This document shows, piece after piece, positions 4,695 to 64,000 of a stretch of 64,000 nucleotides of DNA. The position numbers and the translations under genes are program-made. The DNA is from Patescibacteria group bacterium (GTDB lineage: Bacteria > Patescibacteriota > Patescibacteriia > UBA2591 > UBA6264): the NCBI GenBank assembly GCA_021735685.1, contig JAIPGN010000001.1, forward strand, positions 15,994 to 79,993, in the 5' to 3' direction. Below the pieces are notes generated by a model, which saw nothing but the letters and a program-made list of their open reading frames with translations, was not told where the DNA came from and ran no database searches. Numbering within the stretch: position 1 is the first letter of the stretch; every line of letters begins with the position of its first letter.

Positions 4695-4769
4695 TGGTGG
4701 GCGTGGAAGGAGTCGAACCTTCGACCTCTTCTTTATCAGAGAAGCGTTCTACCGCTGAACCACACGCCC
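4695..4769 (-). tRNA. tRNA-Ile (anticodon GAT), CCA encoded
   Basis: Reverse complement: acceptor GGGCGTG/CACGCCC, anticodon stem CTTCT/AGAAG with loop CTGATAA, T-arm GGTTCGACTCC, then an encoded CCA. It sits directly downstream of the 16S rRNA, as in rRNA operons. Confidence 0.85.
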
Positions 4770-4883: not shown

Positions 4884-5084
4884 ATATCATTAAATTCTAA
4901 ATTCTAAAATCTAAAAGCACTAATCAAAATTATAACAAAAAAGAAAATAATTTCAATGCTTCTAACAAAAATAACCGGTTAAAACCGGTTATTTGCTCTA
5001 TAAATGAAAGACTTAGCAAAGACAGAGAAGTCGGCCATAGTTCTTATTCCTTGAGAATAAGAACTTATAATTTTTCCTCTAAAT

Positions 5085-6603
<1,519 letters not shown>

Positions 6604-6921
6604 AAAATAGAAAAATTTCTTTCAGTCAAAAAAGTTAAATAAATAACACCTTTGACCATTCAGTTAGATCACTGAATGCCCGGTCAAATGACCAAGTAAA
6701 GTTAAATTTTCTAAAAGATATTTGACCATAACTCTCTTTTAAAATAAAAGAATTTTATGGTTTTTTGATCATTAATAGATCAATTCTCTGTCTTCGCTGA
6801 ACCTTTCATTTATTTTTATTTAATTGTAAAGAACAAAAAAGCATTTTAACATGCTAACAAAACAATAATCTAACAAAAATTTATTTTTTATTCAAGTGTT
6901 CAAAAATCAAATTTTTAATTA

Positions 6922-29355: not shown

Positions 29356-30399
29356 ATGTCTATTAATGATTTTTTCTCAGAAGCTGACAATTTAAAAGCT
29401 TCTGATATTCATCTTTCGGTCGATGCTCCCGTATTTTTCAGAGTTAATGGTTCTTTAAAAAAATCTCAAAAATGGCCAGTTCTTGATCAAGAAAAAATAA
29501 TTAATTTAATTTCTGAGATTATTTCTACAAAACAGAAAGAAAATCTTTTAAAAAACAAGTATTTAGAATTTTCTTATCAGAATAAAGAAAAAAATCGTTT
29601 TCGGGTTAGCGTTTTTTATGAAAAAAATAATTTAGCTCTAGCTGCGCGTTTAATTCTTTCAAAAATACCAACTCCTCAAGAAATTGGTCTCCCTAAAGGG
29701 GGAATAAAATTAGCAGAAGCAAAAACTGGTTTAGTTTTAGTTACGGGACCAACTGGTTGTGGTAAATCTACTACCTTAGCCACCATGATTGACTACATTA
29801 ATCAAGAAAGAGAATCTCATATTATTACCTTAGAAGATCCTATAGAATTTATTTTTAAAAACAAAAAAAGTTTAATTGCTCAAAGAGAGTTAGGAAAAGA
29901 TATACCTTCTTTTAATCTAGCCTTAAAGCATATTGTCCGCCAAGATCCTGATGTTATCTTAGTTAGTGAAATGAGAGACTTAGAGACAATTAGTTTAGCT
30001 ATTACCTTAGCTGAAACCGGACACTTGGTTTTATCAACTGTTCATACTCCAAGCGCTCCTCAGACCATAGATCGAATTATTGACGTCTTCCCTTATAATC
30101 AGCAAGAGCAAATTAGACTGCAAGTAGCCTTAGCTTTAAAAGGGGTAATATCTCAATACCTTCTTCCAAAAATAGGAGGAGGTAGAGTAGCAGCCCGAGA
30201 AATACTAATCAATACACCCGCGGTTTCTAATTTAATTAGAGAAAATAAAATAGCTCAAATAAAATCTGTTATACAAAATAGTAGTCGACAAGGAATGCAA
30301 GCTTTAGAAAAGGAACTAAAACATCTCTATCAAAGTAAAATAATAAAAATAGAGGATGCTTTAGCTTATGCTAACTATCCTCAAGAAATAATAAATTAA
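29356..30399 (+). CDS. pilT: type IV pilus retraction ATPase PilT-like (PilT/PilU family)
   Basis: 347 aa. Walker A GPTGCGKST and the PilT-family length and motif set. No pilB, pilC or pilM lie nearby. Confidence 0.75.
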   Translation: MSINDFFSEADNLKASDIHLSVDAPVFFRVNGSLKKSQKWPVLDQEKIINLISEIISTKQKENLLKNKYLEFSYQNKEKNRFRVSVFYEKNNLALAARLILSKIPTPQEIGLPKGGIKLAEAKTGLVLVTGPTGCGKSTTLATMIDYINQERESHIITLEDPIEFIFKNKKSLIAQRELGKDIPSFNLALKHIVRQDPDVILVSEMRDLETISLAITLAETGHLVLSTVHTPSAPQTIDRIIDVFPYNQQEQIRLQVALALKGVISQYLLPKIGGGRVAAREILINTPAVSNLIRENKIAQIKSVIQNSSRQGMQALEKELKHLYQSKIIKIEDALAYANYPQEIIN

Positions 30400-31004: not shown

Positions 31005-32129
31005 TTAACTTTTAATTGGCATAATTAGGTAAAAATAGGATGGGTCTTCTTCGGATTTAATTAAACCAGGAGAATTATCATTAACTATTTCTAGAATCAC
31101 TTCTGATCCAGACATATTATTTAAACCATCAATCAAATAACGATAATTAAATATTATTTCATTTGGATCACCAGTAATATCACTGTCAATAATTGCTTCA
31201 TTCTCACCAACCTGATTATTTAAAGAAGACACAATCAACTGATTCTTTTTAGGTATAAATTTAAGATTAATATCATTTACTCCAGATTTAACAAAAAAAC
31301 TAGCTGACTTAACAATTCTAACAAATTCTTCTCGATTAAGCAAAGCTTTAGTCTTGATATTAGTAGGAATAGTCTGTTTGTAATCAGGATAAGTTCCATT
31401 AATTATTCGAGAAATAATTTCAATATCTTGATAGGTGAATAAAATTTGATTCTCTGATAAATACAATTCTACTTCCTCTTCTTGGTCAGTTTTAATAATT
31501 TTAACTATTTCTTGTAAGGCTCTTAAAGGGACAATAACATTTCTTTCTGTTTTTAATTCATTCTTTTTTAAAGGAATAGTTATTTCTGATAAACGATAAC
31601 TATCAGTTCCGGCAATCACTAATTTCTTTTGATTATCTTTACCTTGAAAAGAGAACAAAGCACCACTTAATTCCATTCTAATATCTGAACTAGAAATTGA
31701 AAATATTATCTTTTCTAAAGCTTTTTTAAATTCTTGAGAATTTAAAACATATTTCTTTTTAGTATCTATTTGAGGAATAATCGGAAATTCTTCTGCTGAC
31801 ATTCCATTTATTTTTGCTTTTTGATTTTTGGTAGAAACAACTAATATATTTTTATTGGTTTCAAATTTTAATGGTTGCTTAGGAAGAAGATTAATATAAT
31901 TATTTAAAACTTGAGCTGGTACGGTAATTTTTCCTTCTTTTTCTATTTTAGACCTAATTTTTATCTCAGCAGCTATCTCTAAATTAGTGCTACTAATTTT
32001 CAATTCTCCGTCTTTAGCGCTTAAAAGAATATTATTCAAAATCGGTAGACTAGTCTTATTTAGACCAGCGATATGACTACTGATATTTAAAGCTTCGATT
32101 AAATTTTCTTGCAAACAAGTGAATTTCAT
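31005..32129 (-). CDS. dnaN: DNA polymerase III beta sliding clamp
   Basis: 374 aa, with a three-domain clamp pattern starting MKFTCLQENLIEAL. Confidence 0.8.
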   Translation of the reverse strand: MKFTCLQENLIEALNISSHIAGLNKTSLPILNNILLSAKDGELKISSTNLEIAAEIKIRSKIEKEGKITVPAQVLNNYINLLPKQPLKFETNKNILVVSTKNQKAKINGMSAEEFPIIPQIDTKKKYVLNSQEFKKALEKIIFSISSSDIRMELSGALFSFQGKDNQKKLVIAGTDSYRLSEITIPLKKNELKTERNVIVPLRALQEIVKIIKTDQEEEVELYLSENQILFTYQDIEIISRIINGTYPDYKQTIPTNIKTKALLNREEFVRIVKSASFFVKSGVNDINLKFIPKKNQLIVSSLNNQVGENEAIIDSDITGDPNEIIFNYRYLIDGLNNMSGSEVILEIVNDNSPGLIKSEEDPSYFYLIMPIKS

Positions 32130-47439: not shown

Positions 47440-48048
47440 ATGTTATTAAAGAAAAAAAATATTTTTATTTTTCTGTTAATTGTTCTTTTTGTTTTTTTTC
47501 TAAATTTTAATTTAGCTGAAGCAGCTAATAATTGTAATGAATTTTGTAAAAGCAATTGTGGATTAGAGAACAATCCTAACCTTTGCCGAATAGTAGGGGC
47601 GGCAGAAGAAAATATGATTTGTAGTTGTTGTCCGGCAGTAATTGGTCAGGGCAATAAGTATGAGTGTTATTGCCAAAATAGCAATAAAGTAATTTGTGAG
47701 GTTGGAGGATTGTTTGGAGGAGAGAAAATGGCAATATGTTCTTGTTGCGGAGATTGTGATTTAAGTGATTTTTTGTATCTCGGAGTGAATGTTGCTGAAA
47801 ATATTTTAAAGTATATGGGGGCTTTAGCTCTTTTACTTTTTGTTTTAGGAGGGATTATGTGGATAACTTCGGGTGGCTCAAAGACCAGAATTCAAAAGGG
47901 AATGGCTATTATTAAAGGATCTTTGATTGGTTTAGCGATTATTATATTTGCTTTTTTGATGATAAGGGTTATAATGGAGAAAGTTTTAAAAGTGGAAGAT
48001 CAGTATCTTCCTCAATCTACTAGCGCGCAAGAACAAAAAATTTCTTAA
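47440..48048 (+). CDS. paralog 1 of small two-helix membrane protein family, with an N-terminal Cys-rich (14 Cys) ectodomain
   Basis: 202 aa. Sec signal peptide, a Cys-rich about 90-aa domain, then the helix1-WITSGG-helix2 module shared with the four downstream paralogs. Confidence 0.6.
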   Translation: MLLKKKNIFIFLLIVLFVFFLNFNLAEAANNCNEFCKSNCGLENNPNLCRIVGAAEENMICSCCPAVIGQGNKYECYCQNSNKVICEVGGLFGGEKMAICSCCGDCDLSDFLYLGVNVAENILKYMGALALLLFVLGGIMWITSGGSKTRIQKGMAIIKGSLIGLAIIIFAFLMIRVIMEKVLKVEDQYLPQSTSAQEQKIS

Positions 48049-48481: not shown

Positions 48482-48880
48482 ATGTTGAAAAAAATGAGAT
48501 CAAAGGCAAATCTTTGGTTTTTGGTAGTAATGATGATGGTTAGTTTGTTTTTCTCTTTACCTGTTTTAGCTCAGGAAGAAGAAAACCTTAATCTTCGAGA
48601 CGGTCTTGATGATTTTCTAACTGGTTCAGAGATGGGAGGCAAGCCAATTGGATTTGTGATTGGACGAATAGTGCAGGGAGTTTTAGGTATTCTTGGCTTG
48701 GTCTGTTTAGTTATCTTTGTTATTGCTGGTTTCCAGTGGATGACCTCTGCTGGCAGCAAAGAAAAAATTCAAAGTGCGCAAAAATCAATGAGCGCAGCAG
48801 TAATTGGTTTAATTATTGTGATTATTTCTTGGGCGGCGATTGATTTTATTGTTGGCGCTTTAGAATCTGTAACTGGATAA
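48482..48880 (+). CDS. paralog 3 of small two-helix membrane protein family
   Basis: 132 aa. Signal peptide …VLAQEE, then …VLGILGLVCLVIFVIAGFQWMTSAGSKEKIQSAQKSMSAAVIGLIIVIISWAAIDF…. Confidence 0.6.
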   Translation: MLKKMRSKANLWFLVVMMMVSLFFSLPVLAQEEENLNLRDGLDDFLTGSEMGGKPIGFVIGRIVQGVLGILGLVCLVIFVIAGFQWMTSAGSKEKIQSAQKSMSAAVIGLIIVIISWAAIDFIVGALESVTG

Positions 48881-48915
48881 AATTTTTCTTCTTAAAGTTA
48901 AAAAAGAGGTTTACA

Positions 48916-49290
48916 ATGAAAAAAAAGTTATTATCTTTTTTTAGCTTGTTTTTGTTATTTTCCTTGGTAATTGCTCCGGCTGTTTTTGCTCAGGATTTAG
49001 GACAAGCTCTTATGGATGATTTTCAAGACGAGGCTGGCATTGGCGATAAAAGCCTTGCTGAGGTCACAGGTAGTGTTGTTAAGGCAATTTTGAGTGTTTT
49101 AGGATTAGTTGCTTTAATTATTTTTATTATCGCTGGCTTCCAGTGGATGACCTCAGGTGGCAATAAAGAAAAGATTCAAGGCGCGCAAAAATTGATGGGA
49201 GCAGCAGTAATTGGTTTAATTATTGTGATTATTGCCTGGGCTGCCACTTACTTTGTGGTTCAATCCTTGACTGGTGTCACTGGAGCTTAA
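48916..49290 (+). CDS. paralog 4 of small two-helix membrane protein family
   Basis: 124 aa. Signal peptide …VFAQD, then …ILSVLGLVALIIFIIAGFQWMTSGGNKEKIQGAQKLMGAAVIGLIIVIIAWAATYF…. GAGG lies 9 nt upstream, the only SD-like start among the paralogs. Confidence 0.6.
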   Translation: MKKKLLSFFSLFLLFSLVIAPAVFAQDLGQALMDDFQDEAGIGDKSLAEVTGSVVKAILSVLGLVALIIFIIAGFQWMTSGGNKEKIQGAQKLMGAAVIGLIIVIIAWAATYFVVQSLTGVTGA

Positions 49291-49325
49291 CAAAAGATTA
49301 TTATCTTTGTAATTTAAGCTAATTT

Positions 49326-49718
49326 ATGTTTTTTTGTCGTTTCCGAGAAAAGGTCTCAAGACTTTGGGGAGCAATGATGTTTTTTTTCTTTTGTTTAATG
49401 ACTCCAGCGCAAGCTATTAACATTCGAGAAGGATTAACATCAGCTGCTTCTAGCGCTGGCCTAAATACCAATCAATCTTTGGCCCTAACCGTTGGCTTAG
49501 TATTTCAGAAAGTGTTAGGTGTTTTAGGACTAATTTTATTAGTTTTATTTGTGGCGGGTGGTTTAATGTGGATGACTTCGGGAGGAAGTACTGATAAAAT
49601 AAAAAAAGCTCGAGGCCTGCTTATTAATGCTGTAATTGGCATGGTTCTTGTGATTTTAGCTTACGCCTTAACTGATTTAGTGATTGGGGGTATAGAGAAA
49701 GCGATAATTACGAATTAG
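49326..49718 (+). CDS. paralog 5 of small two-helix membrane protein family
   Basis: 130 aa. The true start is probably the internal MMFFFFCLMTPAQA. …VLGVLGLILLVLFVAGGLMWMTSGGSTDKIKKARGLLINAVIGMVLVILAYALTDL…. Confidence 0.55.
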   Translation: MFFCRFREKVSRLWGAMMFFFFCLMTPAQAINIREGLTSAASSAGLNTNQSLALTVGLVFQKVLGVLGLILLVLFVAGGLMWMTSGGSTDKIKKARGLLINAVIGMVLVILAYALTDLVIGGIEKAIITN

Positions 49719-51243: not shown

Positions 51244-52482
51244 TTATTTTCTAGGGTATATATATCCTAGAATTTGCCAACCACCCTGAGAAGTGTTTTG
51301 CCAGGCAGTAGTGCGGCGTAAAGTACGAGGGGCTGGTTTTTGAGTCCAGCTAGGATTGGATGGTCCATTCATTTCTGTGACGTAGATATAATTATCATCA
51401 AAACTTTCAATATAAGCGACGTGCCCATACCAATTATTGCATTTTAAAACTACGATACTTCCTTCATCTCCAGGATGTAAGGTTAAGCCGGTTTGGAAAC
51501 CACTGTTGCGGGCATTAGTGAGCCAAGTACGAGCATTACCCCAAGTAGGAGGCACGCATTGTCCTAATTCAGTGGCCCATTTATAAGCTACCCAATCTGT
51601 ACATTGACCTGGTTGCCAGTAGTAACGATGGCAATTAGGGGCACAGGACTTATTTCTCCAATCACTATAATTACAATCACTTCTTTCAGTAGTGAGAATA
51701 GGGGCAGGAGCGCTAACTTTTTTAGGAGAAGTTGGTTGAGGGGTGGGTTTAGGAGCAGGAGCAACAGGTAAAGGTGAACCATTGGGAATAATTAATTCCT
51801 CGCCAACAGTTAAGCTGTCTGGGTTCTCAATTTCATTAATTTCAATTATTTCTTCGATTTCAGCTTTGTATTTATTTGCTATTTGAGAAAGTTTTTCATT
51901 ATTTTTTATTTGATGTAAAATCCCGTCTACCGGTAAAATAATTAATTCATCTCCTGGTTTAATGTTAGAGCGCCAGTAAGTTAAATCATTGGCCCAAAGA
52001 ACAGTGTAAACATTAAGTCCGTATTTTTCGGCAATATCCCAAGGGTTGTCGTTGGGTCGAACGATATATTTTTCAACTTCAGTACGAGTGGGGATTATGT
52101 TTTTTTCAATTACACTGTTTCCAGCCACAAAAGCGGTATCATTAAGAGCAAGGGCTATCTTGAAGTCATTCTCTCTTTCGCGAGTAAGGCTAGCGATTTG
52201 AAAGTCAGCTTTTTCTTCTTTTTGAATGGCTTGAAAGTGGATCTCTTGATTATTATTTTCAGATGAAGTTGGCAAAGAAACAATTTGTTTACAATCTTTT
52301 ATTTGTTGAAAAGAGAAAAACACAAAGAATGCAATAACTAAAAAAACGGGCAATTGTTTCCCCGGTTCTATTTTTTGACAGATTCGCTTTAGGCAGTGCC
52401 AGAAGTAAAGGGCACGAAGAATGCCTTTTTTTATAAATCCGATCATAAATTTAGCGAATTTTCTTAAAACACTATCTTGCAT
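51244..52482 (-). CDS. membrane-anchored peptidoglycan hydrolase with two LysM domains and a C-terminal CHAP domain
   Basis: 412 aa. LysM-like blocks (YIVRPNDNPWDIAEKYG… and HQIKNNEKLSQIANKYK…). CHAP Cys/His pattern (…GQCTDWVAYKW…YGHVAYIE…). A P/T-rich linker. Confidence 0.65.
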   Translation of the reverse strand: MQDSVLRKFAKFMIGFIKKGILRALYFWHCLKRICQKIEPGKQLPVFLVIAFFVFFSFQQIKDCKQIVSLPTSSENNNQEIHFQAIQKEEKADFQIASLTRERENDFKIALALNDTAFVAGNSVIEKNIIPTRTEVEKYIVRPNDNPWDIAEKYGLNVYTVLWANDLTYWRSNIKPGDELIILPVDGILHQIKNNEKLSQIANKYKAEIEEIIEINEIENPDSLTVGEELIIPNGSPLPVAPAPKPTPQPTSPKKVSAPAPILTTERSDCNYSDWRNKSCAPNCHRYYWQPGQCTDWVAYKWATELGQCVPPTWGNARTWLTNARNSGFQTGLTLHPGDEGSIVVLKCNNWYGHVAYIESFDDNYIYVTEMNGPSNPSWTQKPAPRTLRRTTAWQNTSQGGWQILGYIYPRK

Positions 52483-56112: not shown

Positions 56113-56823
56113 ATGGAAGAAAAGAAGGAGCATAATAAAAAGAAGAGGAAAATTTTTCAATTATTTTTGTTTATTGTCTTGGGTGGATTTATCTTATTTC
56201 TGGGTTTTGTTCAGCTGAAAACAGCGATCTATGGCCCTTATTTTTTGCAAAAAGAAAATAATTCTAATTTTTCTGAAGAAGAAATTTTGAATATTCTGAC
56301 TCAACAGGCTCAGGAAATGGACACAGATCAAGACGGTCTTTCTGATTATGAAGAATTCTACACCCATCAAACTTCTCCTTATCTTGGGGATTCAGATGGA
56401 GATAATTTTAACGATTTAGAAGAGATAGAGGCAGAGAGCGACCCTTTGGATCCTTTTTCGACCCCTTATCGTCAATCTCCTTCTGAAACAGAATCGACAA
56501 CAGGAGAAAAGGGGTTAATTTGGGAGGCAAGTTTGCCGGAAAATCTTTCAGCTGAAGAGATTCGTTCTTTATTGTTGCGCCTGGGAATTGAATCTGAGAT
56601 TGTGGAAAATATTAGTGACAAAGAACTGGAAAACCTATATAATGAAACCAAGGAAGAGACAGGGATTAATCCTCAAGTTTTGCTTAATCCCTCTTTATTA
56701 GATATAGATACTGAATCTTTAAGACAATCTTTAATAGAGGAAGGAATAGATCCTTTGCTTCTGGAAGATATGGATGACAAAACTTTGAAATCAATGTTTT
56801 TGGAATATTTAAATTTAAAATAA
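56113..56823 (+). CDS. single-pass membrane protein with thrombospondin-type-3/dockerin-like Ca-binding acidic repeats
   Basis: Probable true start MEEKKEHNKK… at 56113. The upstream part of ORF 56035 is repeat-encoded. TM FQLFLFIVLGGFILFLGFV. DTDQDGLSDYEE and DSDGDNFNDLEE are DxDxDG motifs. Confidence 0.5.
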   Translation: MEEKKEHNKKKRKIFQLFLFIVLGGFILFLGFVQLKTAIYGPYFLQKENNSNFSEEEILNILTQQAQEMDTDQDGLSDYEEFYTHQTSPYLGDSDGDNFNDLEEIEAESDPLDPFSTPYRQSPSETESTTGEKGLIWEASLPENLSAEEIRSLLLRLGIESEIVENISDKELENLYNETKEETGINPQVLLNPSLLDIDTESLRQSLIEEGIDPLLLEDMDDKTLKSMFLEYLNLK

Positions 56824-56842
56824 TTTGTTTTTTTTATTGAAT

Positions 56843-59800
56843 ATGATTTTTAAGGAATCAGGCAATGCTTTTAAAAAAGGAGCGACCTTGTTGATGGTAT
56901 TTTTTTTGGTCGTTTCTTTTTCTTTTGTTCCTCAAAAGGTTCAAGCTCAGTTTATAGTTACTGATATTTTTAAAATGGGTTGGGATGTAGCCAAAAAGGC
57001 TTGGGAACATGGCGGAGCAATTGCTTACCATAACGCCCTTAGTTATGTTCTTCAGCAAATGGCTAAACAAACCGGAGAATGGTTGGCAGAAGGAGGCAAG
57101 GGAAAAAAGCCTCTTTTTTGGACTGATCCAAAAGAATTTTTTGAAAAAGCAGGAGATCAAGTACTGGGAGAGTTTATTGACGGCATGGCCAGCAGTTTTT
57201 TGGGTCAAAGTTTATGTGATAATTTAGATTACACGGTTAAGTTTAACATTTTAGCCAATCTGGACCCTAATTATGCGCAAACCAAATGGGCGGAAGAGCC
57301 AGAATGTTCATTTTCTCAAATGAAGAAAAATCTAGAAAAAATGAAAATATCTAATATGGCTGAATTTTCTACTGAATTAAAAGAAGGAAAAGTAGATAAG
57401 CAGGAAAGCATGATTACTACTTTAATTCAAGGAGACTCTGTTTTAACCAGCGAACAAAAAATATGGTTGGATGGCGAATTAGATACTTGTCCAGAGCCTG
57501 GCTCTTGTCCAGAGGGAGAAGACTATATTGTTATTTGGGACTCTCATTATTATGAGATAGCAAATGCTGGAGCTGCTGCCTATTTACATTCTTATACTCA
57601 AAAATTTAAAGATATTTTAGAAGAATTAAAGGCAATTAGTGAAGGAGAGACTGAAGGTCAAAAACAACATGATGTTTTAGAAGGCACAGCGGTTAGAAAA
57701 TTTAAAGATTTGCAAGATAAATTAGCTCCAGATACAGGCCCAGAGCTTTGGGGGGATGGGGAGGTTTATTCTCCAGGAAGCAATTCAAGAACTGGTCTAA
57801 AGGCCTTAAATGAAGTTAGCGCAGAATGCGTTAGAAATAGTCAACAAATTTGTGATAATCCTGATTGTGTGGCTCTTTGTCATATTGGTGGCACAAACAA
57901 TTGCCAGAGCGATGAATCAACTTGTTTGGACCGTTTAAAAAGAATTAAGTCTTACAGTAATCAATTAGTAGAATGGGCGAGCACTATCCAGGATATGACT
58001 GATCGGTCTATTGCTAATTGGGAAGCTAGAGAGGCAATTCCCGACTTGGATCCGCTTACTGATGCCGAGTTTATGTTTAATCCAGAAAGTAATCCCATTG
58101 GGATTCAAATGAGCTTGGAAAGCAAGCTTTTTGCTCAACAAACAGAAGCAATTGAGAAAAGTAAATTTTTCCGTCAGTTACAAGGCTCTATGAATGCGGT
58201 TACTTCCAAAGTTTCTGGTTTAGTTAAGTGGCCATCTACTTTAGTGGATGAAAAAACTAGAGATATGGTGGAAGCTTCGCAAGGCAGTATTGCTGAAACT
58301 ACGGGAGTGGCAGCAGCGGATGCCTTAAATGTTTTGGCTAGCACCTTTCTTCAACAATTTATGAAAAGGATAATGAAAGGTTCTCTTAATCCTGCTTTGG
58401 ATAGTGGAGGAGTTACTGTTCCTTCTGACCCTGACGCTCCTCCAGCTAACAAGGTTATTTCGGTTTTAAGCGGAATTGAAATTGTTCCTTTGAGTCAGAG
58501 TAGTCAAGAAATGACGATTTATGACGAGTTTACGGTTTGCCCTAGCGGAACAGACCAAAAACATATTTCTCAATTTAATTGTTTAATTGATAATAAATTA
58601 TCTCGGGCCATGGAAGAAAAATTGACTTTAGCTGAAGCCATGGAAAGGGATTTCTTGAGCCCATCTGAACGTTTAGGAGTAGAGGGCCAGTCAAATAGTT
58701 TGTTGGCTGAATCTAATTTAAAGAAGTTAAGATTATTAGGAATTATTCCCTTAGGACTAGAAATTGCTCATAAAAAAATTATTGAAGAGCAGTACAGCAA
58801 TGGTTTGCCTTTATCTGAAGTTATAGCTGGTTTTAATCAAAGAGGGGAAGATGGGATTTGTGGTACTTTAGATCAAGGAGAAAGTCCTTTTTGTAATCTA
58901 GTTGATCCTAATTGGGTTTTAAGGGCCGATAGTTATTTGTGCGAATTAACTGGCTATTCAGCTATTCCGGGCCGAGATAGCGTTTTTCGCCAAGAATCTT
59001 GTTTAGATTTTAAAACTTGTATTTCCGAATCAGAAGAAAGTTGTGATACTTGGTCTTACTGTACTCGTGCCAAAAACGTCTGGCGATTTGATGGAGATGA
59101 ATGTGATGCTCAATACAGTAGCTGTACCTCTTATGTTAATCAAAATAATGGAAAAACCTATTCTTATTTGGCCAATACTTTGAATTTTGAAAATTGTGAT
59201 TCCAATAATGTGGGGTGTCAATGGTATTGTTCAGATTGGGATCCAGTATATTCAGGGGTTGAAAATTGGTCTTGTGCTGCTCCAGGTTGGCGAAAATATA
59301 ATTGTAATTTAGGCTCTCCTTGTGAGACTGAAGCTGGATGTGATTGTAGTTGTGATGGCGATAACGGATGTCCGTCGGGAATTGGATCTTGTTTGGTCGC
59401 CGAAGGCGCTACTTATTGTACTTTAGAAAAACCTCATCCTCAAAATACTATATTCTTTAGTAGTCATGTGGATGATTGTAAAGAAACAGAAGAGGGTTGT
59501 TCTCAGTATATTAGGACGACCCCAGGCTTAGGCGTTAATTTTTTAGTAAATGGTAGTTTTGAATTAGGAGTTAATTCGGGAGGAGCTCCCCTAGGCTGGA
59601 GTTCCAATCAAGAGCAATTGATTAGTAAGTTTAACCCAGAAGAAGGATCCATTCCTAATGGGAATAATGTTTTAAGAATTCAAGGGGAAGGAGGACCGTA
59701 TGGGATATTTTTAAAGCAAGAGGTTAATAATATTTCTCCATCTTCAAGTAATTTAATTATCTCTGGTTATTACAAAGATGTTGATAGTTCGGTGAGTGGT

Positions 59801-62800
59801 GATAATAAATTAAGGGTTAAGGCTTGTTATGATTCTGGTTGTAGTGACTTTGACCTTAAAGAAAAACCAATTGACCTTGAAGAAAATCAATGGAAATATA
59901 ATGTTCTTACAATTTCTTTGAATAAAAATAAATCAATTGATCATTTAGTGGTGGAGGCCATAAGAAATGCTGTTAATAATTTTTCCGGAATTCTTTACTT
60001 AGATTCTTTTCAGGTTAGAAACGAAAGCGGTAATTCTTCTTATCGCGAGTATGGCTCGCACGGTAATGTTTATTTAAAAAGCGCTCCTCAATGGATGAAT
60101 TGTTATGATACTGATTCTTCTAACGATCATGCAGATTGTGTTAATTTTATTTCTCTTTGTTCAGCTGAAGAGGTTGGCTGTGAGCTCTATACTTCTGTCA
60201 GCAATCAGGGCGATATTCAGATTCCAGCCATAGTTCAAGAATCAGATCAATGTCCTTCTACTTGCGTTGGTTATGAGACTTTTGAAGAAATTGGCTCTTT
60301 TTTTGATCCTCGAGTCAATCGTTGGGTGGAAATGATTCCGCAAACTGCGCGAAAATGTTTAGCTCCAGGTTGTGAGGCGTTTACCAATTTAGATTTTTTG
60401 GCTCAAGGTGGTGAAGCTGAGGAATATTATACTTATCTTCGTCAGTGCGTTAAAGTTAATCAAGAAGGATTGGCGATTATTGATTCGGCGGGAGAAGAAA
60501 TTTCTCCAGCCTCTAATGATACTTGCCAGTATTACTATACTTGGATCGGAGAAGAAGAGTCTGGCTATCAATTAAGAAGTTATTATTTGGAAAAAGATTC
60601 TAATTTGGGTGGTCCACTTCAAGTTAGTTCAAGCCCTAATCCAAGTTGGGGAGAATGTGATGAAAATAATTTAGACAACCCTCATTGTCGTCAATTTTAT
60701 GACGATGAAGGTAATGTTTATTATCGTTTTTATAAAAATACGATTAGCTGTTCTCAGGATTGTAAACCTTATCGTCGAGAGATTGATGACGAAATTTATA
60801 TGGCTATTGGCACAGAAGGAGAGGTCTGCCGCCCCCAAGACTTAGGTTGCCGCGAGTACAAAGGGGCTGCCTACGGAAGTATGCGTAATTTATTTGAAGA
60901 TAAATTTTTAAATGAAAATAGTCTTGCAGGTTGGGAGAGAGTAGAACTAAGCACAGAGTCTTTAGATCGTTTTGGTTATTCTCTTCAGGCCAACGATACT
61001 TATGTGAAAAAGCCTGCATCTTCTTATCTTAAACAGGGAGGAGTTTATTCTTTGAAGCTTTGGGTTAAAGGAGGTGGGAATTATAGAGCTTCTTTGGGAA
61101 GCGTTGATTTCCTCCAAGGAGAGAGCCAGGCTGTTGTTTCTGAAGAGTGGCAAGAAATAAAGTTTGGAACAATTTATTTTAATCAAGAGTTAAGTGGTGA
61201 TGAAAATTTAATTATTTACGGCCCCAATGAATTTTATTTAGATAATATTTCTTTGAATAAAGTAGAGGATGATCTTTATTTAATTAAAGATTCTTGGGAT
61301 ACTCCTCAAATTTGTGATTTGGATGCTGACGGAAATATTTCTCCAGGATACATGGTTGGTTGTCGGGCTTATCAAGACCGAGTTAAGAATTATCATTATT
61401 TTAAATCTTTTAGCCGTCTTTGTTCATCCGAAGCTGCTGGTTGTGAGGCTTTGATCAATACTTATAATTCAAGCTCCCCTTTCTCGGAACAATTTAATTC
61501 TGGCTCACCGGACGGAGACGAGTTAACTGTCTTAGCCGACGCTACGGTCTACCGAATATATGATTCTGAATATTCTTGTGCGGCCGAGAAAAAGGGTTGT
61601 CAAAAATTTGGTCAACCTGAGTTCAGTGAAGAGGAAGAGGTGGTTGGCTATCAAGATGTCTTTTTAATCAATGACCCCGATGCTTATCAGTTGCAATCTA
61701 TACTTTGCGACTTCAGTGGATGGGGTTGCCAAGAATATAATGGCCCGGTTTATTTTAAAGACCCGGGAAGTAAAGTTTGCGAGTACCGAGAAAATGTTTC
61801 GCTTTATGGAGAAACCAAAAATGGTTGGTTTAAGCAGGGAACCAACAATCCTTGTTATCTTGAAAGTGGTCTTGCCTATCAACCCTATGGTTCGGTTTAT
61901 GGAATTCGTTTTAATGATGACCCCCTTTATGATGGTTGGGCGGGAATTTGCCCAGGCGGTCAAGATGGCTGTACCCAGTTTATTGATCCTTTGGCTCAAA
62001 ATTTAATTTTAAATAGTGGCTTGGAAGAAGATGTTAATGAGGACGGGGTTCCCGATCATTGGGATTCTTATGCTTTGCCTGATTCTTTTGATTTGCAAAA
62101 TAACGGTTGTTTGAGTGGTCAATGTTGGTTTGTGGATACTACGAGTGATACTGCGGCCGCTAGTCAGTATATCAAAATTAATCCCGGCTCTACTTACGAG
62201 CTTTCTGCTTGGGTGAAAGCAAGAGAGGGATCGACAGGATCTGTTAAAATTTATCTCGCTTATGTCGACCAGAAGCCTTCTGGCGACTGGATAGATGTTG
62301 TTTCTGTTGCTAATGATAATGATTTGCAAGGAAAATGGGAAAAATTAAGCGTGAGTTTAATCGCTCCTCTTGATGCTCAATATGCTCGAGTTTTGGTTCC
62401 TTATGTCAGTGATTTAATGGAGGTTCATGTTGATAATATCTCCTTAATTGAGAAAAATTCTTCAAAAGGAAGCTATTATTTTATTAATAACGACAATTTA
62501 GATCGTTCTTCTTGCGCTGGTATGGTTGGAGTCAAAGATGGTTGTATTCTTTTTAATGATACCTCTTTATCCGGTCGTTTGCCTTATGATTCGGCGTCTA
62601 CTTATGCTTTAAGCCAAGAGAATAATGATTTAGCAGTACCAGTTAGTAATATTCCTGTTGGTTCGGGGGCGGAAGGAGATAGTAATTTAATTTTAAAAGT
62701 AAAAAGAGATCGAGTCTGTGGGGAGTGGTTGCATTGTTCTGGGTCTTATCAGGTTTGGGACAGCTCTATTGATGATTATCGCCAAGTCTGTGATTCTTGG

Positions 62801-64000
62801 GTTCGTTGCGATCAATTAATTGGTGAGGCCAAGAACGCTCAATGTGGGCATGTTGTTTATGACCCTAATCCTCAAGTTTTAACGCCAGAACTTTATCAAG
62901 AAAGAAATGTTTCTTGGAAAGGGATGGATTATGTTGGTTATTCTCTTCTGGGCACTTATCCAGTAGAGAGGCTAACTCCCACAGAAAACGAGCTTAAATA
63001 TCAATTAACCTATTTTGATCAAGATGGTAATGATTTGGGGATTGATAATCAAGGAACAATATTAGATAAGTCTGTCCACGTTTATCCAGAAAAAGATTCT
63101 CCTTTTAAGAAAAATGCTGGTGAATATTATAATAAAGTTAATTTATGTAATAGTTCGGAAGAAGACGATGCCAGTTCTCTTTATCCAGATTGTCAGGGTG
63201 TTTACAAAAAAGTTGAATATGGGGATCAATATAGCGGGCAAACTAAATATTTTAATTTTGATGATAGTGGTGCAGCTGATCAAGGGGTTTGTAGAATGAG
63301 CGGTGAGGAATGCGGCGACGATGAGACTGATTGTATTACTGCAGGTGACGAATGTTTGCCTCCATTAAGAGTGACTGATGCAGTTGGTCTGCGTGGTTTT
63401 TGTTTAGAGCCAGATGAGTCTAAACCGGACGAGATTGATGCCTGCATTACTTGGTGGCCCGGAGCAGCTGTAGGAGACATGGACGTTTTTAATATGTATT
63501 ATTCAGCTGGTTATGTGCCTCCAGCAGCTACAAAATGGTATTGTGCTAGTGATGACAGTGGGGATGAATTGGGGATAGCTAGGCAAGCGTGTGATTATAA
63601 TTGTAAAAGAGGTTTTGGTGGTAGTTATTCTAAATATATTGGCTTGTCGGATAGTCAATCTGACTGGCGGGTTAATGGGAAAAGTGGTTGTGGGGGGGAT
63701 GATATTAATTCAGGAATTTTTAGATTAGGAGAGATTGAAAAAATAGAAGTTTATATTTTTGCAGACGATGGCACTAGCAGTGGTAGCTGCACAAGCCCTC
63801 ATTGTCAAGGTTATGTAACTCTTAACAAAGAAACTGGTTGGTGGAGGGGAATAAAGAATAATGATCAAGGTAGCTGTAACAAGGGGAATGGCGAAGGCTT
63901 GCCCACTTCTTTTCCTTCTAGTTTTCCCCTGAGTGCACCAGATGGAGGAGGGTCTACGTCGGTAAAGGCTTGCTTCAATGAGGCTTGTGATAGTTATGAT
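56843..64000 (+). CDS. giant secreted cysteine-rich surface protein (partial, over 2380 aa, continues beyond the window) with at least three CBM4/9-like beta-sandwich domains
   Basis: Open frame from ATG 56843 to the window end with no stop. An alternative start at 56894 is preceded by AAGGAG. Signal peptide MVFFLVVSFSFVPQKVQAQ. Dense Cys pairs (CxxC…C). Three segments with VNGSFE…/LNSGLEED…/FLNENSLAGWE… jelly-roll CBM-like signatures. Confidence 0.7.
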   Translation, partial: MIFKESGNAFKKGATLLMVFFLVVSFSFVPQKVQAQFIVTDIFKMGWDVAKKAWEHGGAIAYHNALSYVLQQMAKQTGEWLAEGGKGKKPLFWTDPKEFFEKAGDQVLGEFIDGMASSFLGQSLCDNLDYTVKFNILANLDPNYAQTKWAEEPECSFSQMKKNLEKMKISNMAEFSTELKEGKVDKQESMITTLIQGDSVLTSEQKIWLDGELDTCPEPGSCPEGEDYIVIWDSHYYEIANAGAAAYLHSYTQKFKDILEELKAISEGETEGQKQHDVLEGTAVRKFKDLQDKLAPDTGPELWGDGEVYSPGSNSRTGLKALNEVSAECVRNSQQICDNPDCVALCHIGGTNNCQSDESTCLDRLKRIKSYSNQLVEWASTIQDMTDRSIANWEAREAIPDLDPLTDAEFMFNPESNPIGIQMSLESKLFAQQTEAIEKSKFFRQLQGSMNAVTSKVSGLVKWPSTLVDEKTRDMVEASQGSIAETTGVAAADALNVLASTFLQQFMKRIMKGSLNPALDSGGVTVPSDPDAPPANKVISVLSGIEIVPLSQSSQEMTIYDEFTVCPSGTDQKHISQFNCLIDNKLSRAMEEKLTLAEAMERDFLSPSERLGVEGQSNSLLAESNLKKLRLLGIIPLGLEIAHKKIIEEQYSNGLPLSEVIAGFNQRGEDGICGTLDQGESPFCNLVDPNWVLRADSYLCELTGYSAIPGRDSVFRQESCLDFKTCISESEESCDTWSYCTRAKNVWRFDGDECDAQYSSCTSYVNQNNGKTYSYLANTLNFENCDSNNVGCQWYCSDWDPVYSGVENWSCAAPGWRKYNCNLGSPCETEAGCDCSCDGDNGCPSGIGSCLVAEGATYCTLEKPHPQNTIFFSSHVDDCKETEEGCSQYIRTTPGLGVNFLVNGSFELGVNSGGAPLGWSSNQEQLISKFNPEEGSIPNGNNVLRIQGEGGPYGIFLKQEVNNISPSSSNLIISGYYKDVDSSVSGDNKLRVKACYDSGCSDFDLKEKPIDLEENQWKYNVLTISLNKNKSIDHLVVEAIRNAVNNFSGILYLDSFQVRNESGNSSYREYGSHGNVYLKSAPQWMNCYDTDSSNDHADCVNFISLCSAEEVGCELYTSVSNQGDIQIPAIVQESDQCPSTCVGYETFEEIGSFFDPRVNRWVEMIPQTARKCLAPGCEAFTNLDFLAQGGEAEEYYTYLRQCVKVNQEGLAIIDSAGEEISPASNDTCQYYYTWIGEEESGYQLRSYYLEKDSNLGGPLQVSSSPNPSWGECDENNLDNPHCRQFYDDEGNVYYRFYKNTISCSQDCKPYRREIDDEIYMAIGTEGEVCRPQDLGCREYKGAAYGSMRNLFEDKFLNENSLAGWERVELSTESLDRFGYSLQANDTYVKKPASSYLKQGGVYSLKLWVKGGGNYRASLGSVDFLQGESQAVVSEEWQEIKFGTIYFNQELSGDENLIIYGPNEFYLDNISLNKVEDDLYLIKDSWDTPQICDLDADGNISPGYMVGCRAYQDRVKNYHYFKSFSRLCSSEAAGCEALINTYNSSSPFSEQFNSGSPDGDELTVLADATVYRIYDSEYSCAAEKKGCQKFGQPEFSEEEEVVGYQDVFLINDPDAYQLQSILCDFSGWGCQEYNGPVYFKDPGSKVCEYRENVSLYGETKNGWFKQGTNNPCYLESGLAYQPYGSVYGIRFNDDPLYDGWAGICPGGQDGCTQFIDPLAQNLILNSGLEEDVNEDGVPDHWDSYALPDSFDLQNNGCLSGQCWFVDTTSDTAAASQYIKINPGSTYELSAWVKAREGSTGSVKIYLAYVDQKPSGDWIDVVSVANDNDLQGKWEKLSVSLIAPLDAQYARVLVPYVSDLMEVHVDNISLIEKNSSKGSYYFINNDNLDRSSCAGMVGVKDGCILFNDTSLSGRLPYDSASTYALSQENNDLAVPVSNIPVGSGAEGDSNLILKVKRDRVCGEWLHCSGSYQVWDSSIDDYRQVCDSWVRCDQLIGEAKNAQCGHVVYDPNPQVLTPELYQERNVSWKGMDYVGYSLLGTYPVERLTPTENELKYQLTYFDQDGNDLGIDNQGTILDKSVHVYPEKDSPFKKNAGEYYNKVNLCNSSEEDDASSLYPDCQGVYKKVEYGDQYSGQTKYFNFDDSGAADQGVCRMSGEECGDDETDCITAGDECLPPLRVTDAVGLRGFCLEPDESKPDEIDACITWWPGAAVGDMDVFNMYYSAGYVPPAATKWYCASDDSGDELGIARQACDYNCKRGFGGSYSKYIGLSDSQSDWRVNGKSGCGGDDINSGIFRLGEIEKIEVYIFADDGTSSGSCTSPHCQGYVTLNKETGWWRGIKNNDQGSCNKGNGEGLPTSFPSSFPLSAPDGGGSTSVKACFNEACDSYD

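Follow-up and report, generated by a model that had tools for sequence, protein, structure and literature searches.

A giant cysteine-rich secreted protein and its TSP3-repeat neighbour, encoded first in a cluster of type IV secretion genes in Patescibacteria

The window analysed here is a stretch of 64,000 nucleotides (nt) of contig JAIPGN010000001.1 from a Patescibacteria group bacterium, an organism with a reduced genome. At its end the window carries a small gene encoding a membrane protein with thrombospondin type 3 (TSP3) repeats and, directly after it, the gene of a giant secreted cysteine-rich protein (hereafter the giant), which runs off the window. The two genes are co-directional and in relatives they are clustered with the VirB4, PrgI/VirB3 and VirB6 genes of a type IV secretion system (T4SS). 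Table 1 collects the features discussed below.

Table 1. Features of the T4SS-linked locus in the window and regions of the giant protein (aa, amino acids; TM, transmembrane; ORF, open reading frame; AF2, AlphaFold2; V2 and V3, variable sites of the giant)
Feature	Position in window	Strand	Basis or remark
Fourth, weaker VirB2-like pilin gene	47440-48048	+	same neighbourhood
Array of three VirB2-like T4SS pilin genes	48482..49718	+	Pfam T4SS_pilin 31-36 bits; TrbC weak
LysM + CHAP peptidoglycan hydrolase	51244..52482	-	Pfam LysM 61.8 bits, CHAP 50 bits
236-aa single-pass (type II) membrane protein with TSP3 repeats	56113..56823	+	ORF, TM scan, TSP3_bac, synteny
Giant gene, codons 1-2,386 of 2,708	56843..64000	+	runs off window end
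Signal peptide of Sec type, aa 1-35, probably cleaved after VQA	56843..56947	+	sole hydrophobic segment
Mostly helical N-terminal region with relatively few Cys, aa 36-670	56948..58852	+	AF2 model, conservation/indel profile
First Cys-dense scaffold block, aa 671-892	58853..59518	+	invariant columns, motif listing
Jelly roll 1, CBM4/9-like, aa 893-1066	59519..60040	+	clade-specific cassette at V2; hhalign
Jelly roll 2, CBM4/9-like, aa 1345-1482	60875..61288	+	family-wide module; hhalign
Jelly roll 3, aa 1712-1878	61976..62476	+	clade-specific cassette at V3; Pfam CBM_4_9
Conserved Cys-rich beta core C4, aa 1885-2245	62495..63577	+	invariant columns; AF2 model m66be37a48348

The giant protein and its TSP3 partner

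A first reading made from the letters of the window (the sequence-only reading) had described the giant gene as a single uninterrupted frame running to the window end, and had named an overlooked stop codon or frameshift as the finding that would undo it. Translation of the + frame gave 2,386 codons and no stop. By our estimate, which is not a computed value, it is effectively impossible for an open run of this length to arise by chance in DNA of 36-40% GC. A word-indexed protein search returned an identical full-length protein of 2,708 aa (P0001), so that the window is short of the final 322 aa only; the complete gene lies at 3025-11151 of L001, a contig of 15.9 kb, and thus could be followed past the window as had been suggested. 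Moreover, the giant can be aligned over its whole length with 54 full-length orthologues (2,436-3,573 aa), and for this reason we see no frameshift problem in the gene. The NCBI name of P0001 is 'carbohydrate binding domain-containing protein [Patescibacteria group bacterium]'.

With aa 400-1599 as query, phmmer was run exhaustively on 1.84 billion representative proteins and gave 1,092 clusters at E ≤ 1e-30, or about 1,100 giant-family clusters at 50% identity, nearly all of which are annotated as hypothetical. Among the 150 matches listed most have 2.0-3.6 thousand aa, and some shorter ones are probably fragments. Distant members of the family were reached by scanning a single genome for each GTDB species, which gave 78 loci, and by a search seeded with a distant orthologue; a word-indexed search with the family alignment added no distant members. 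The titles of the locus records refer to Uhrbacteria, Magasanikbacteria, Falkowbacteria, Komeilibacteria and 'Patescibacteria group'. Many metagenome-assembled genome records with the giant locus are titled 'uncultured Gammaproteobacteria bacterium' (e.g. L008, L011, L056 and L083) and one homologue is recorded under Nanoarchaeota; these titles are probably placeholders or wrong taxonomic labels. No description of a giant Cys-rich T4SS-linked protein of Patescibacteria was found in the literature, our coverage of which was not exhaustive. The giant and its TSP3 partner are two unannotated families, labelled as 'hypothetical' or with a generic carbohydrate-binding name.

The N-terminus of the giant reads MIFKESGNAFKKGATLLMVFFLVVSFSFVPQKVQA followed by QF, with a basic n-region, a hydrophobic core and a cleavage site, read by eye, between VQA and QF. 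A hydrophobicity scan of the whole protein found a single hydrophobic segment (aa 13-31). In the orthologues the h-region is likewise followed by AxA/AQA, and all the full-length ones have a signal-peptide-like N-terminus. Neither an LPXTG motif nor a C-terminal TM segment was found in P0001, which ends in ...GLIKVRPQ.

The giant contains 102 Cys (3.8%), 72 of them conserved at a level of at least 90% among 20 homologues, and the most frequent Cys-Cys spacings are of 4-8 residues. The picture of a secreted, Cys-rich protein with a signal peptide, which had been drawn from the letters, is therefore upheld. Its further element, a Cys-poor N-terminal region of about 350 aa, holds roughly, as only 4 Cys occur in aa 1-300, but the limit is not a clean one: 6 Cys stand at aa 329-361, none at aa 401-565, and the Cys-dense part begins at about aa 670. 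Within aa 36-670 we observed two conserved blocks (aa 50-150 and 400-670) and a clade-specific insert, V1, at about aa 190-405.

The first Cys-dense block of the scaffold is marked by an invariant 'YCTR(E/A)KN(I/V)W' motif and by two copies of C-x5-GC-x2-[YF], and core C4, the model of which is mostly beta, by an invariant 'RDR(V/T)CGEWL' motif. Over the whole giant the invariant residues are chiefly Cys, Gly and aromatics. In the slightly wider form C-x5-GC-x2-[YFWL], the repeated motif, which may form a disulfide hairpin, occurs eight times in P0001 (aa 785, 879, 1106, 1329, 1527, 1579, 1622 and 1703; about 59195-61982 of the window), with a mean of 6 per protein over 136 family members and of 0.1 in shuffled sequences. 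All three jelly rolls are immediately preceded by a copy, and after the third there is a longer variant. No library family matched this motif.

All three jelly rolls of carbohydrate-binding module (CBM) family 4/9 type that the sequence-only reading had proposed were recovered. Jelly roll 3 is recognized by Pfam as CBM_4_9 (PF02018, aa 1729-1846) with 42.4 bits against a gathering threshold of 25.9, and in a profile search with a 20-sequence alignment it aligns to CBM22 and related PDB chains with E of 1e-6 to 6e-5. Pfam does not detect jelly rolls 1 and 2 in the giant of the window; hhalign relates them to jelly roll 3 with probabilities of 98.7% and 94.8%, respectively. For jelly roll 2 there is also a Pfam CBM_4_9 match in distant orthologues (P0026, 29.6 bits).

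Conserved blocks and variable sites were delimited by aligning 54 and then 136 full-length members. The conserved blocks correspond to aa 36-190, 405-800, 1066-1705 (with jelly roll 2), 1885-2245 and 2550-2708, and are constant in length, while the variable sites range over 7-291 (V1), 74-361 (V2), 23-204 (V3) and 242-806 aa (V4). Jelly roll 2 is present in all relatives. Jelly rolls 1 and 3 are clade-specific insertions outside the family core: they occupy V2 and V3 in the clade of the window, where most relatives have short loops, and about 60-72% of the 54 orthologues show a gap at jelly roll 1. P0103 and P0109 have an NHL beta-propeller (153 bits) within the third core block. The giant is a conserved scaffold with cassettes of varying length and type at fixed sites, and this scaffold is made of an N-terminal helical region, C-x5-GC hairpins, one universal CBM-like jelly roll, beta-sandwiches and a C-terminal domain of about 100 aa that may be PKD-like.

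The sequence-only reading had mentioned glycoside hydrolase modules as an example of what the CBM-like and Cys-rich segments might turn out to be. Neither Pfam and NCBIfam nor the PDB profile search showed a catalytic domain in the giant, even at E ≤ 1. Over the whole protein Pfam and NCBIfam returned at this cut-off only CBM_4_9 and, on the same segment, sub-threshold hits to NTTRR-F1 and to the gene transfer agent (GTA) spike fibre; the PDB profile search with the 20-sequence alignment returned CBM chains only. Regions of the giant outside aa 896-1879 were modelled with AF2 from 29-row alignments. The model of aa 30-895 (m281a39572707, mean pLDDT 62) has long helices and then beta structure, and Foldseek found for it no PDB match at E<0.1, only generic helical bundles. 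No VirB5/TraC-like fold was among the Foldseek results for aa 30-895. The modelled regions appear to be helical bundles and Ig/PKD-like sandwiches, with no TIM barrel or other enzyme fold.

The protein encoded upstream of the giant has a Lys/Arg-rich basic N-terminus, one TM segment (aa 17-35), an IYGPY(F) motif and two Asp-rich repeats of TSP3 type, DTDQDGLSD and DSDGDNFND in the window copy, after which come helical 'E(I/L)RxxL...DDxxLxxLYxE' repeats. The window copy scores 22.9 bits on TSP3_bac (PF18884), under the gathering threshold of 25; this family is matched by 34 of the 40 orthologues, with a best E of 2.5e-13. In the alignment of these proteins D70, D72, D74, G75, D93, D95 and D97 are invariant. 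These results agree with the small single-pass protein with putative Ca-binding repeats that had been read from the letters.

Synteny was counted by tblastn and then jackhmmer on the 78 loci, the giants of which share no more than 24-56% identity. In 66 of 67 species the gene immediately upstream of the giant is that of the TSP3 protein, at a median distance of 14 nt, so the pair that the sequence-only reading had proposed to look for in relatives does exist there. Such a tight and conserved adjacency fits a role as partner or anchor. Near the start of the operon, a scan for promoters and terminators returned no signal beyond that expected from shuffled sequence.

The type IV secretion neighbourhood

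The gene order around the pair was read from the contigs of the closest homologues (giant 37-77% identical). It comprises, upstream, a VirB2-like pilin array, yebC, ruvC, a LysM-CHAP hydrolase on the opposite strand, leuS and rsmA; then the TSP3 and giant genes; and, downstream, a polytopic protein of 880-950 aa, a charged protein of about 430-590 aa, PrgI/VirB3, a TraC/TrsD-like protein, the VirB4 ATPase (P-loop_TraG/AAA_10), two small proteins and another pilin. The window holds the same order and the same Pfam calls up to the giant gene, and the later genes fall beyond its end. On L001 a protein of 892 aa, homologous to the VirB6-like proteins of the relatives, is encoded 35 nt after the giant gene. 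Within its first 340 residues 7-8 TM segments are predicted (the scan gives 8, of which two overlap), and it is followed by a Cys-free charged protein of 530 aa (p530). The VirB6-like protein and p530 are the only genes of the source organism's T4SS cluster seen downstream of the giant before L001 ends. Just after p530 (L001 15513-15884) there is a gene of the 23S_rRNA_IVP family (63.6 bits), and one is also present in the relative L005.

We call the polytopic proteins VirB6-like because of a precomputed Pfam label, TrbL_3 (PF19590), on the downstream proteins of 882-955 aa (e.g. L002 18401-21049 and L004 18471-21338), and because of their multi-TM N-terminal domain and their position. The label was not reproduced by hmmscan with the current Pfam-A, even at E ≤ 0.1.

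Across species a VirB6-like gene is found within 10 kb downstream of the giant in 32/35 cases, and PrgI/VirB3 and TraC/TrsD-like genes within the same distance in 26/35; VirB4 is next in order where the downstream flank is long enough. The TSP3 and giant genes head a T4SS gene cluster of Patescibacteria/MPF-FATA-like type across deep divergence. On the upstream side rsmA is retained in 57 of 60 species, and the leuS linkage falls with divergence (17/49). The giant and VirB6-like genes are co-directional, and in 13 of 47 species not more than 150 nt apart. In many of the loci outside the within-10-kb counts extra genes stand between them, some of which encode further Cys-rich secreted proteins, and these extra genes shift the VirB4 ATPase past the fetched flank.

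Two of these intervening genes, both placed between the giant and the VirB6-like gene, encode proteins of 763 aa with 39 Cys (L045 23932-26220) and of 889 aa with 45 Cys (L048 19961-22627). In the Magasanikbacteria-type clade the same position is taken by a conserved gene for a protein of about 196 aa (L057 17963-18553, +), which explains the gap of about 1.1 kb between giant and VirB6-like gene in 18 of 47 species.

The pilin array of the window is placed about 7 kb upstream of the giant with housekeeping genes between, and the same array is found in the close relatives L002, L003 and L006. The LysM + CHAP hydrolase, which is syntenic in closer relatives only, is a candidate for a VirB1-like wall-opening enzyme of the T4SS.

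Gene dnaN is at 31005-32129 (-), the cumulative GC-skew minimum is near 31 kb and the gene orientation switches there (about 28-36 kb), which places the replication origin probably about 25 kb from the T4SS locus. This agrees with the published observation that T4SS loci of Patescibacteria sit near the origin. Elsewhere in the window a 16S rRNA gene (5081-6606, -) is followed by tRNA-Ile (4695-4769, -) and no 23S rRNA gene was found in the window, so the rRNA genes appear to be unlinked. An ATPase gene of the T2SSE family (PilB/GspE type; 29356-30399, +, 144.6 bits) adjoins two tRNA genes and is probably part of a type IV pilus or competence machinery.

Proposed role and alternative explanations

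The giant is Sec-targeted, anchorless, disulfide-rich and modular, with domains of binding type. With a probability of about 0.55 we suggest that it forms, together with the TSP3 protein, the extracellular module of the Patescibacteria T4SS locus and that this module acts in host recognition or adhesion. Sec would export the giant, some 50 disulfides would stabilise it in the extracellular space, and it may be held at the cell surface by the TSP3 (Ca2+-repeat) protein, by the adjacent VirB6-like protein or by both. The variable lectin-like cassettes could then recognise glycans of the host envelope, and the giant would in this way supply the adhesin or host-recognition function for a pilin-bearing, relaxase-less T4SS docking on the host cell. 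Host attachment is thus what we infer for the giant. The same role had been put forward from the letters alone; the secreted, Cys-rich nature of the giant and its CBM-like modules agree with it, but it was stated there in generic terms and without the T4SS gene cluster.

Several observations weigh against this proposal. Synteny is the whole of the evidence connecting the giant with the T4SS, and rsmA is nearly as syntenic, which means that conserved order in small genomes is no proof of a shared function. In three of the loci with a downstream flank of 9.5 kb or more (L048, L053 and L084) no VirB6-like gene was detected; in two of these the giant is followed by apparently unrelated genes, in L053 by ORFs that by eye resemble ribosomal protein S2 and EF-Ts and in L084 by transporter-like ORFs, with the TSP3-giant pair kept in both. 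The giant has no similarity to a T4SS subunit or conjugation adhesin in Pfam and NCBIfam at E ≤ 1, in the PDB profile search or among folds, and its AF2 models are of modest quality (mean pLDDT 62-63). Finally, the T4SS locus of Southlakia encodes no protein of more than 1,113 aa and no Cys-rich giant, from which it follows that the giant is specific to certain lineages and not a universal part of the T4SS.

Some of these points lead to another explanation, in which the giant is a general surface adhesin or envelope scaffold independent of the T4SS and its adjacency to VirB6 is a frozen gene order. This would account for the two loci that keep the pair with no adjoining T4SS genes, for the synteny of rsmA and, in closer relatives, of leuS, ruvC and yebC, and it is in line with the large Cys-rich extracellular proteins that are a general Candidate Phyla Radiation (CPR) feature, as in Peribacteria (PMC4736985). 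We consider it a serious rival but less probable than the T4SS-linked module, as the leuS linkage decays with divergence while the order TSP3-giant-VirB6 persists, all of these genes are on the same strand and the spacing between giant and VirB6-like gene is 150 nt or less in 13 of 47 species.

CBM_4_9 and CBM22 modules normally accompany glycoside hydrolases, about 2,000 aa of the giant have no assigned fold, and a preprint ties giant genes of predatory bacteria to cell-wall degradation (bioRxiv 10.1101/2023.11.21.568195). These facts could point to a secreted enzyme degrading polysaccharides or cell walls, with a catalytic domain too divergent to be recognized, CBMs that target it to its substrate and a TSP3/dockerin-like partner as scaffold. 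We regard this as very improbable given that the searches described above found no catalytic family, that the modelled regions look like helical bundles and Ig/PKD-like sandwiches and that the invariant residues are Cys, Gly and aromatics and not typical acid/base pairs. The giant might also be a cargo or effector of the T4SS, such as a toxin or a protein perforating the host envelope, released onto or into the host. Its place in the T4SS locus, its lack of a covalent anchor motif and the protein export proposed for these relaxase-less systems (PMC10633639) are compatible with such a role, which is if anything the least probable of all: the Sec signal peptide already places the giant outside a monoderm cell, a protein of 2.4-3.6 thousand aa with about 50 disulfides is hard to fit through a T4SS channel, and no toxin domains were detected by Pfam or NCBIfam. 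Domain content, Sec signal, size and disulfide load together make both the enzyme and the effector less likely.

Returning to the T4SS-linked adhesion module, we are tempted to go one step further for the lineages of Uhr-, Magasanik-, Falkow- and Komeilibacteria type, although we hold this extension at rather less than even odds. The giant could be a disulfide-braced extracellular stalk or dock, seated on VirB6 and on the VirB2-like pilus and tethered by the TSP3 protein, and so the missing distal part of the T4SS; its exchangeable lectin and propeller cassettes would set the host range, and the epibiont would be held in place while the T4SS moves material. If this were true, it would be an accessory organelle of the T4SS belonging to a new class, with no relation to PrgB, VirB5 or the outer-membrane core of diderms. 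The giant family is a concrete candidate for the means by which these cells recognise their hosts and hold on to them. In many lineages from groundwater and sediment it stands first in the T4SS operon, variable binding modules are inserted in it at fixed sites, and the type of cassette is a possible marker for predicting host range from metagenomes.

Comparison with known systems

The T4SS of Patescibacteria resembles the conjugation systems of monoderms, has VirB2-like pilins and is mostly devoid of a relaxase (PMC12102498, PMC10633639). In Southlakia, the sole Patescibacterium with genetics, it is essential for epibiotic growth and its role was described as 'completely unknown' (PMC11665869). 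The Southlakia epibionticum locus (SEML1_0006-0019) is similar to the one described here in the order VirB6-like, an intervening gene, PrgI, TrsD/TraC-like and VirB4, in its arrays of VirB2-like pilins and in its position near the origin.

As regards the binding modules, jelly roll 3 aligns to the CBM22 of xylanase Y/Xyn10B and is in this respect comparable to the CBM4/9 and CBM22 modules of cellulosomal and S-layer-associated glycoside hydrolases. Unlike in those enzymes, the modules of the giant sit in an apparently non-enzymatic scaffold and two of the three are lineage-specific cassettes. Large Cys-rich extracellular proteins with a mean of 1,655 aa were reported in Peribacteria, encoded in a cluster of 14 genes with no reported link to a T4SS (PMC4736985). 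Set side by side from their descriptions, these proteins and the giant have in common the CPR origin, a signal peptide, a high Cys content and a proposed role in attachment.

By position the giant can also be compared with VirB5, the adhesin at the tip of the pilus, since it is Sec-exported and helical in its N-terminal part, and since its gene stands just upstream of a virB6-like gene in a T4SS with pilins. The giant is about ten times the size of VirB5, and because no VirB5/TraC-like fold was matched this comparison stays an analogy. A giant protein linked to a T4SS is not without precedent, as VirB6-4 of Anaplasma reaches 4,322 aa (PMC7648143). The giant differs from these extended VirB6 proteins of Rickettsiales in not being polytopic.

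PrgB (aggregation substance of pCF10) and the Antigen I/II (AgI/II) family are surface adhesins encoded in conjugative T4SS loci of Gram-positive bacteria, and they too are among the closest known systems. The passages of a 2025 survey of Patescibacteria T4SSs considered here state that 'no adhesins, such as PrgB, were detected', and they make no mention of the giant and TSP3 pair (PMC12102498). Foldseek comparison of the giant with the C-domains of AgI/II (BspA and SpaP; 5dz9 and 3opu) gave non-significant E values of 0.06-0.14. The giant has no sequence homology with PrgB and AgI/II, lacks their LPXTG motif, is about twice as large and is extremely rich in Cys. Like them, it is a large, Sec-exported, multi-domain protein rich in beta-sandwiches and encoded beside genes of VirB6, VirB3 and VirB4 type, and both are thought to make cell-cell contact for a monoderm T4SS.

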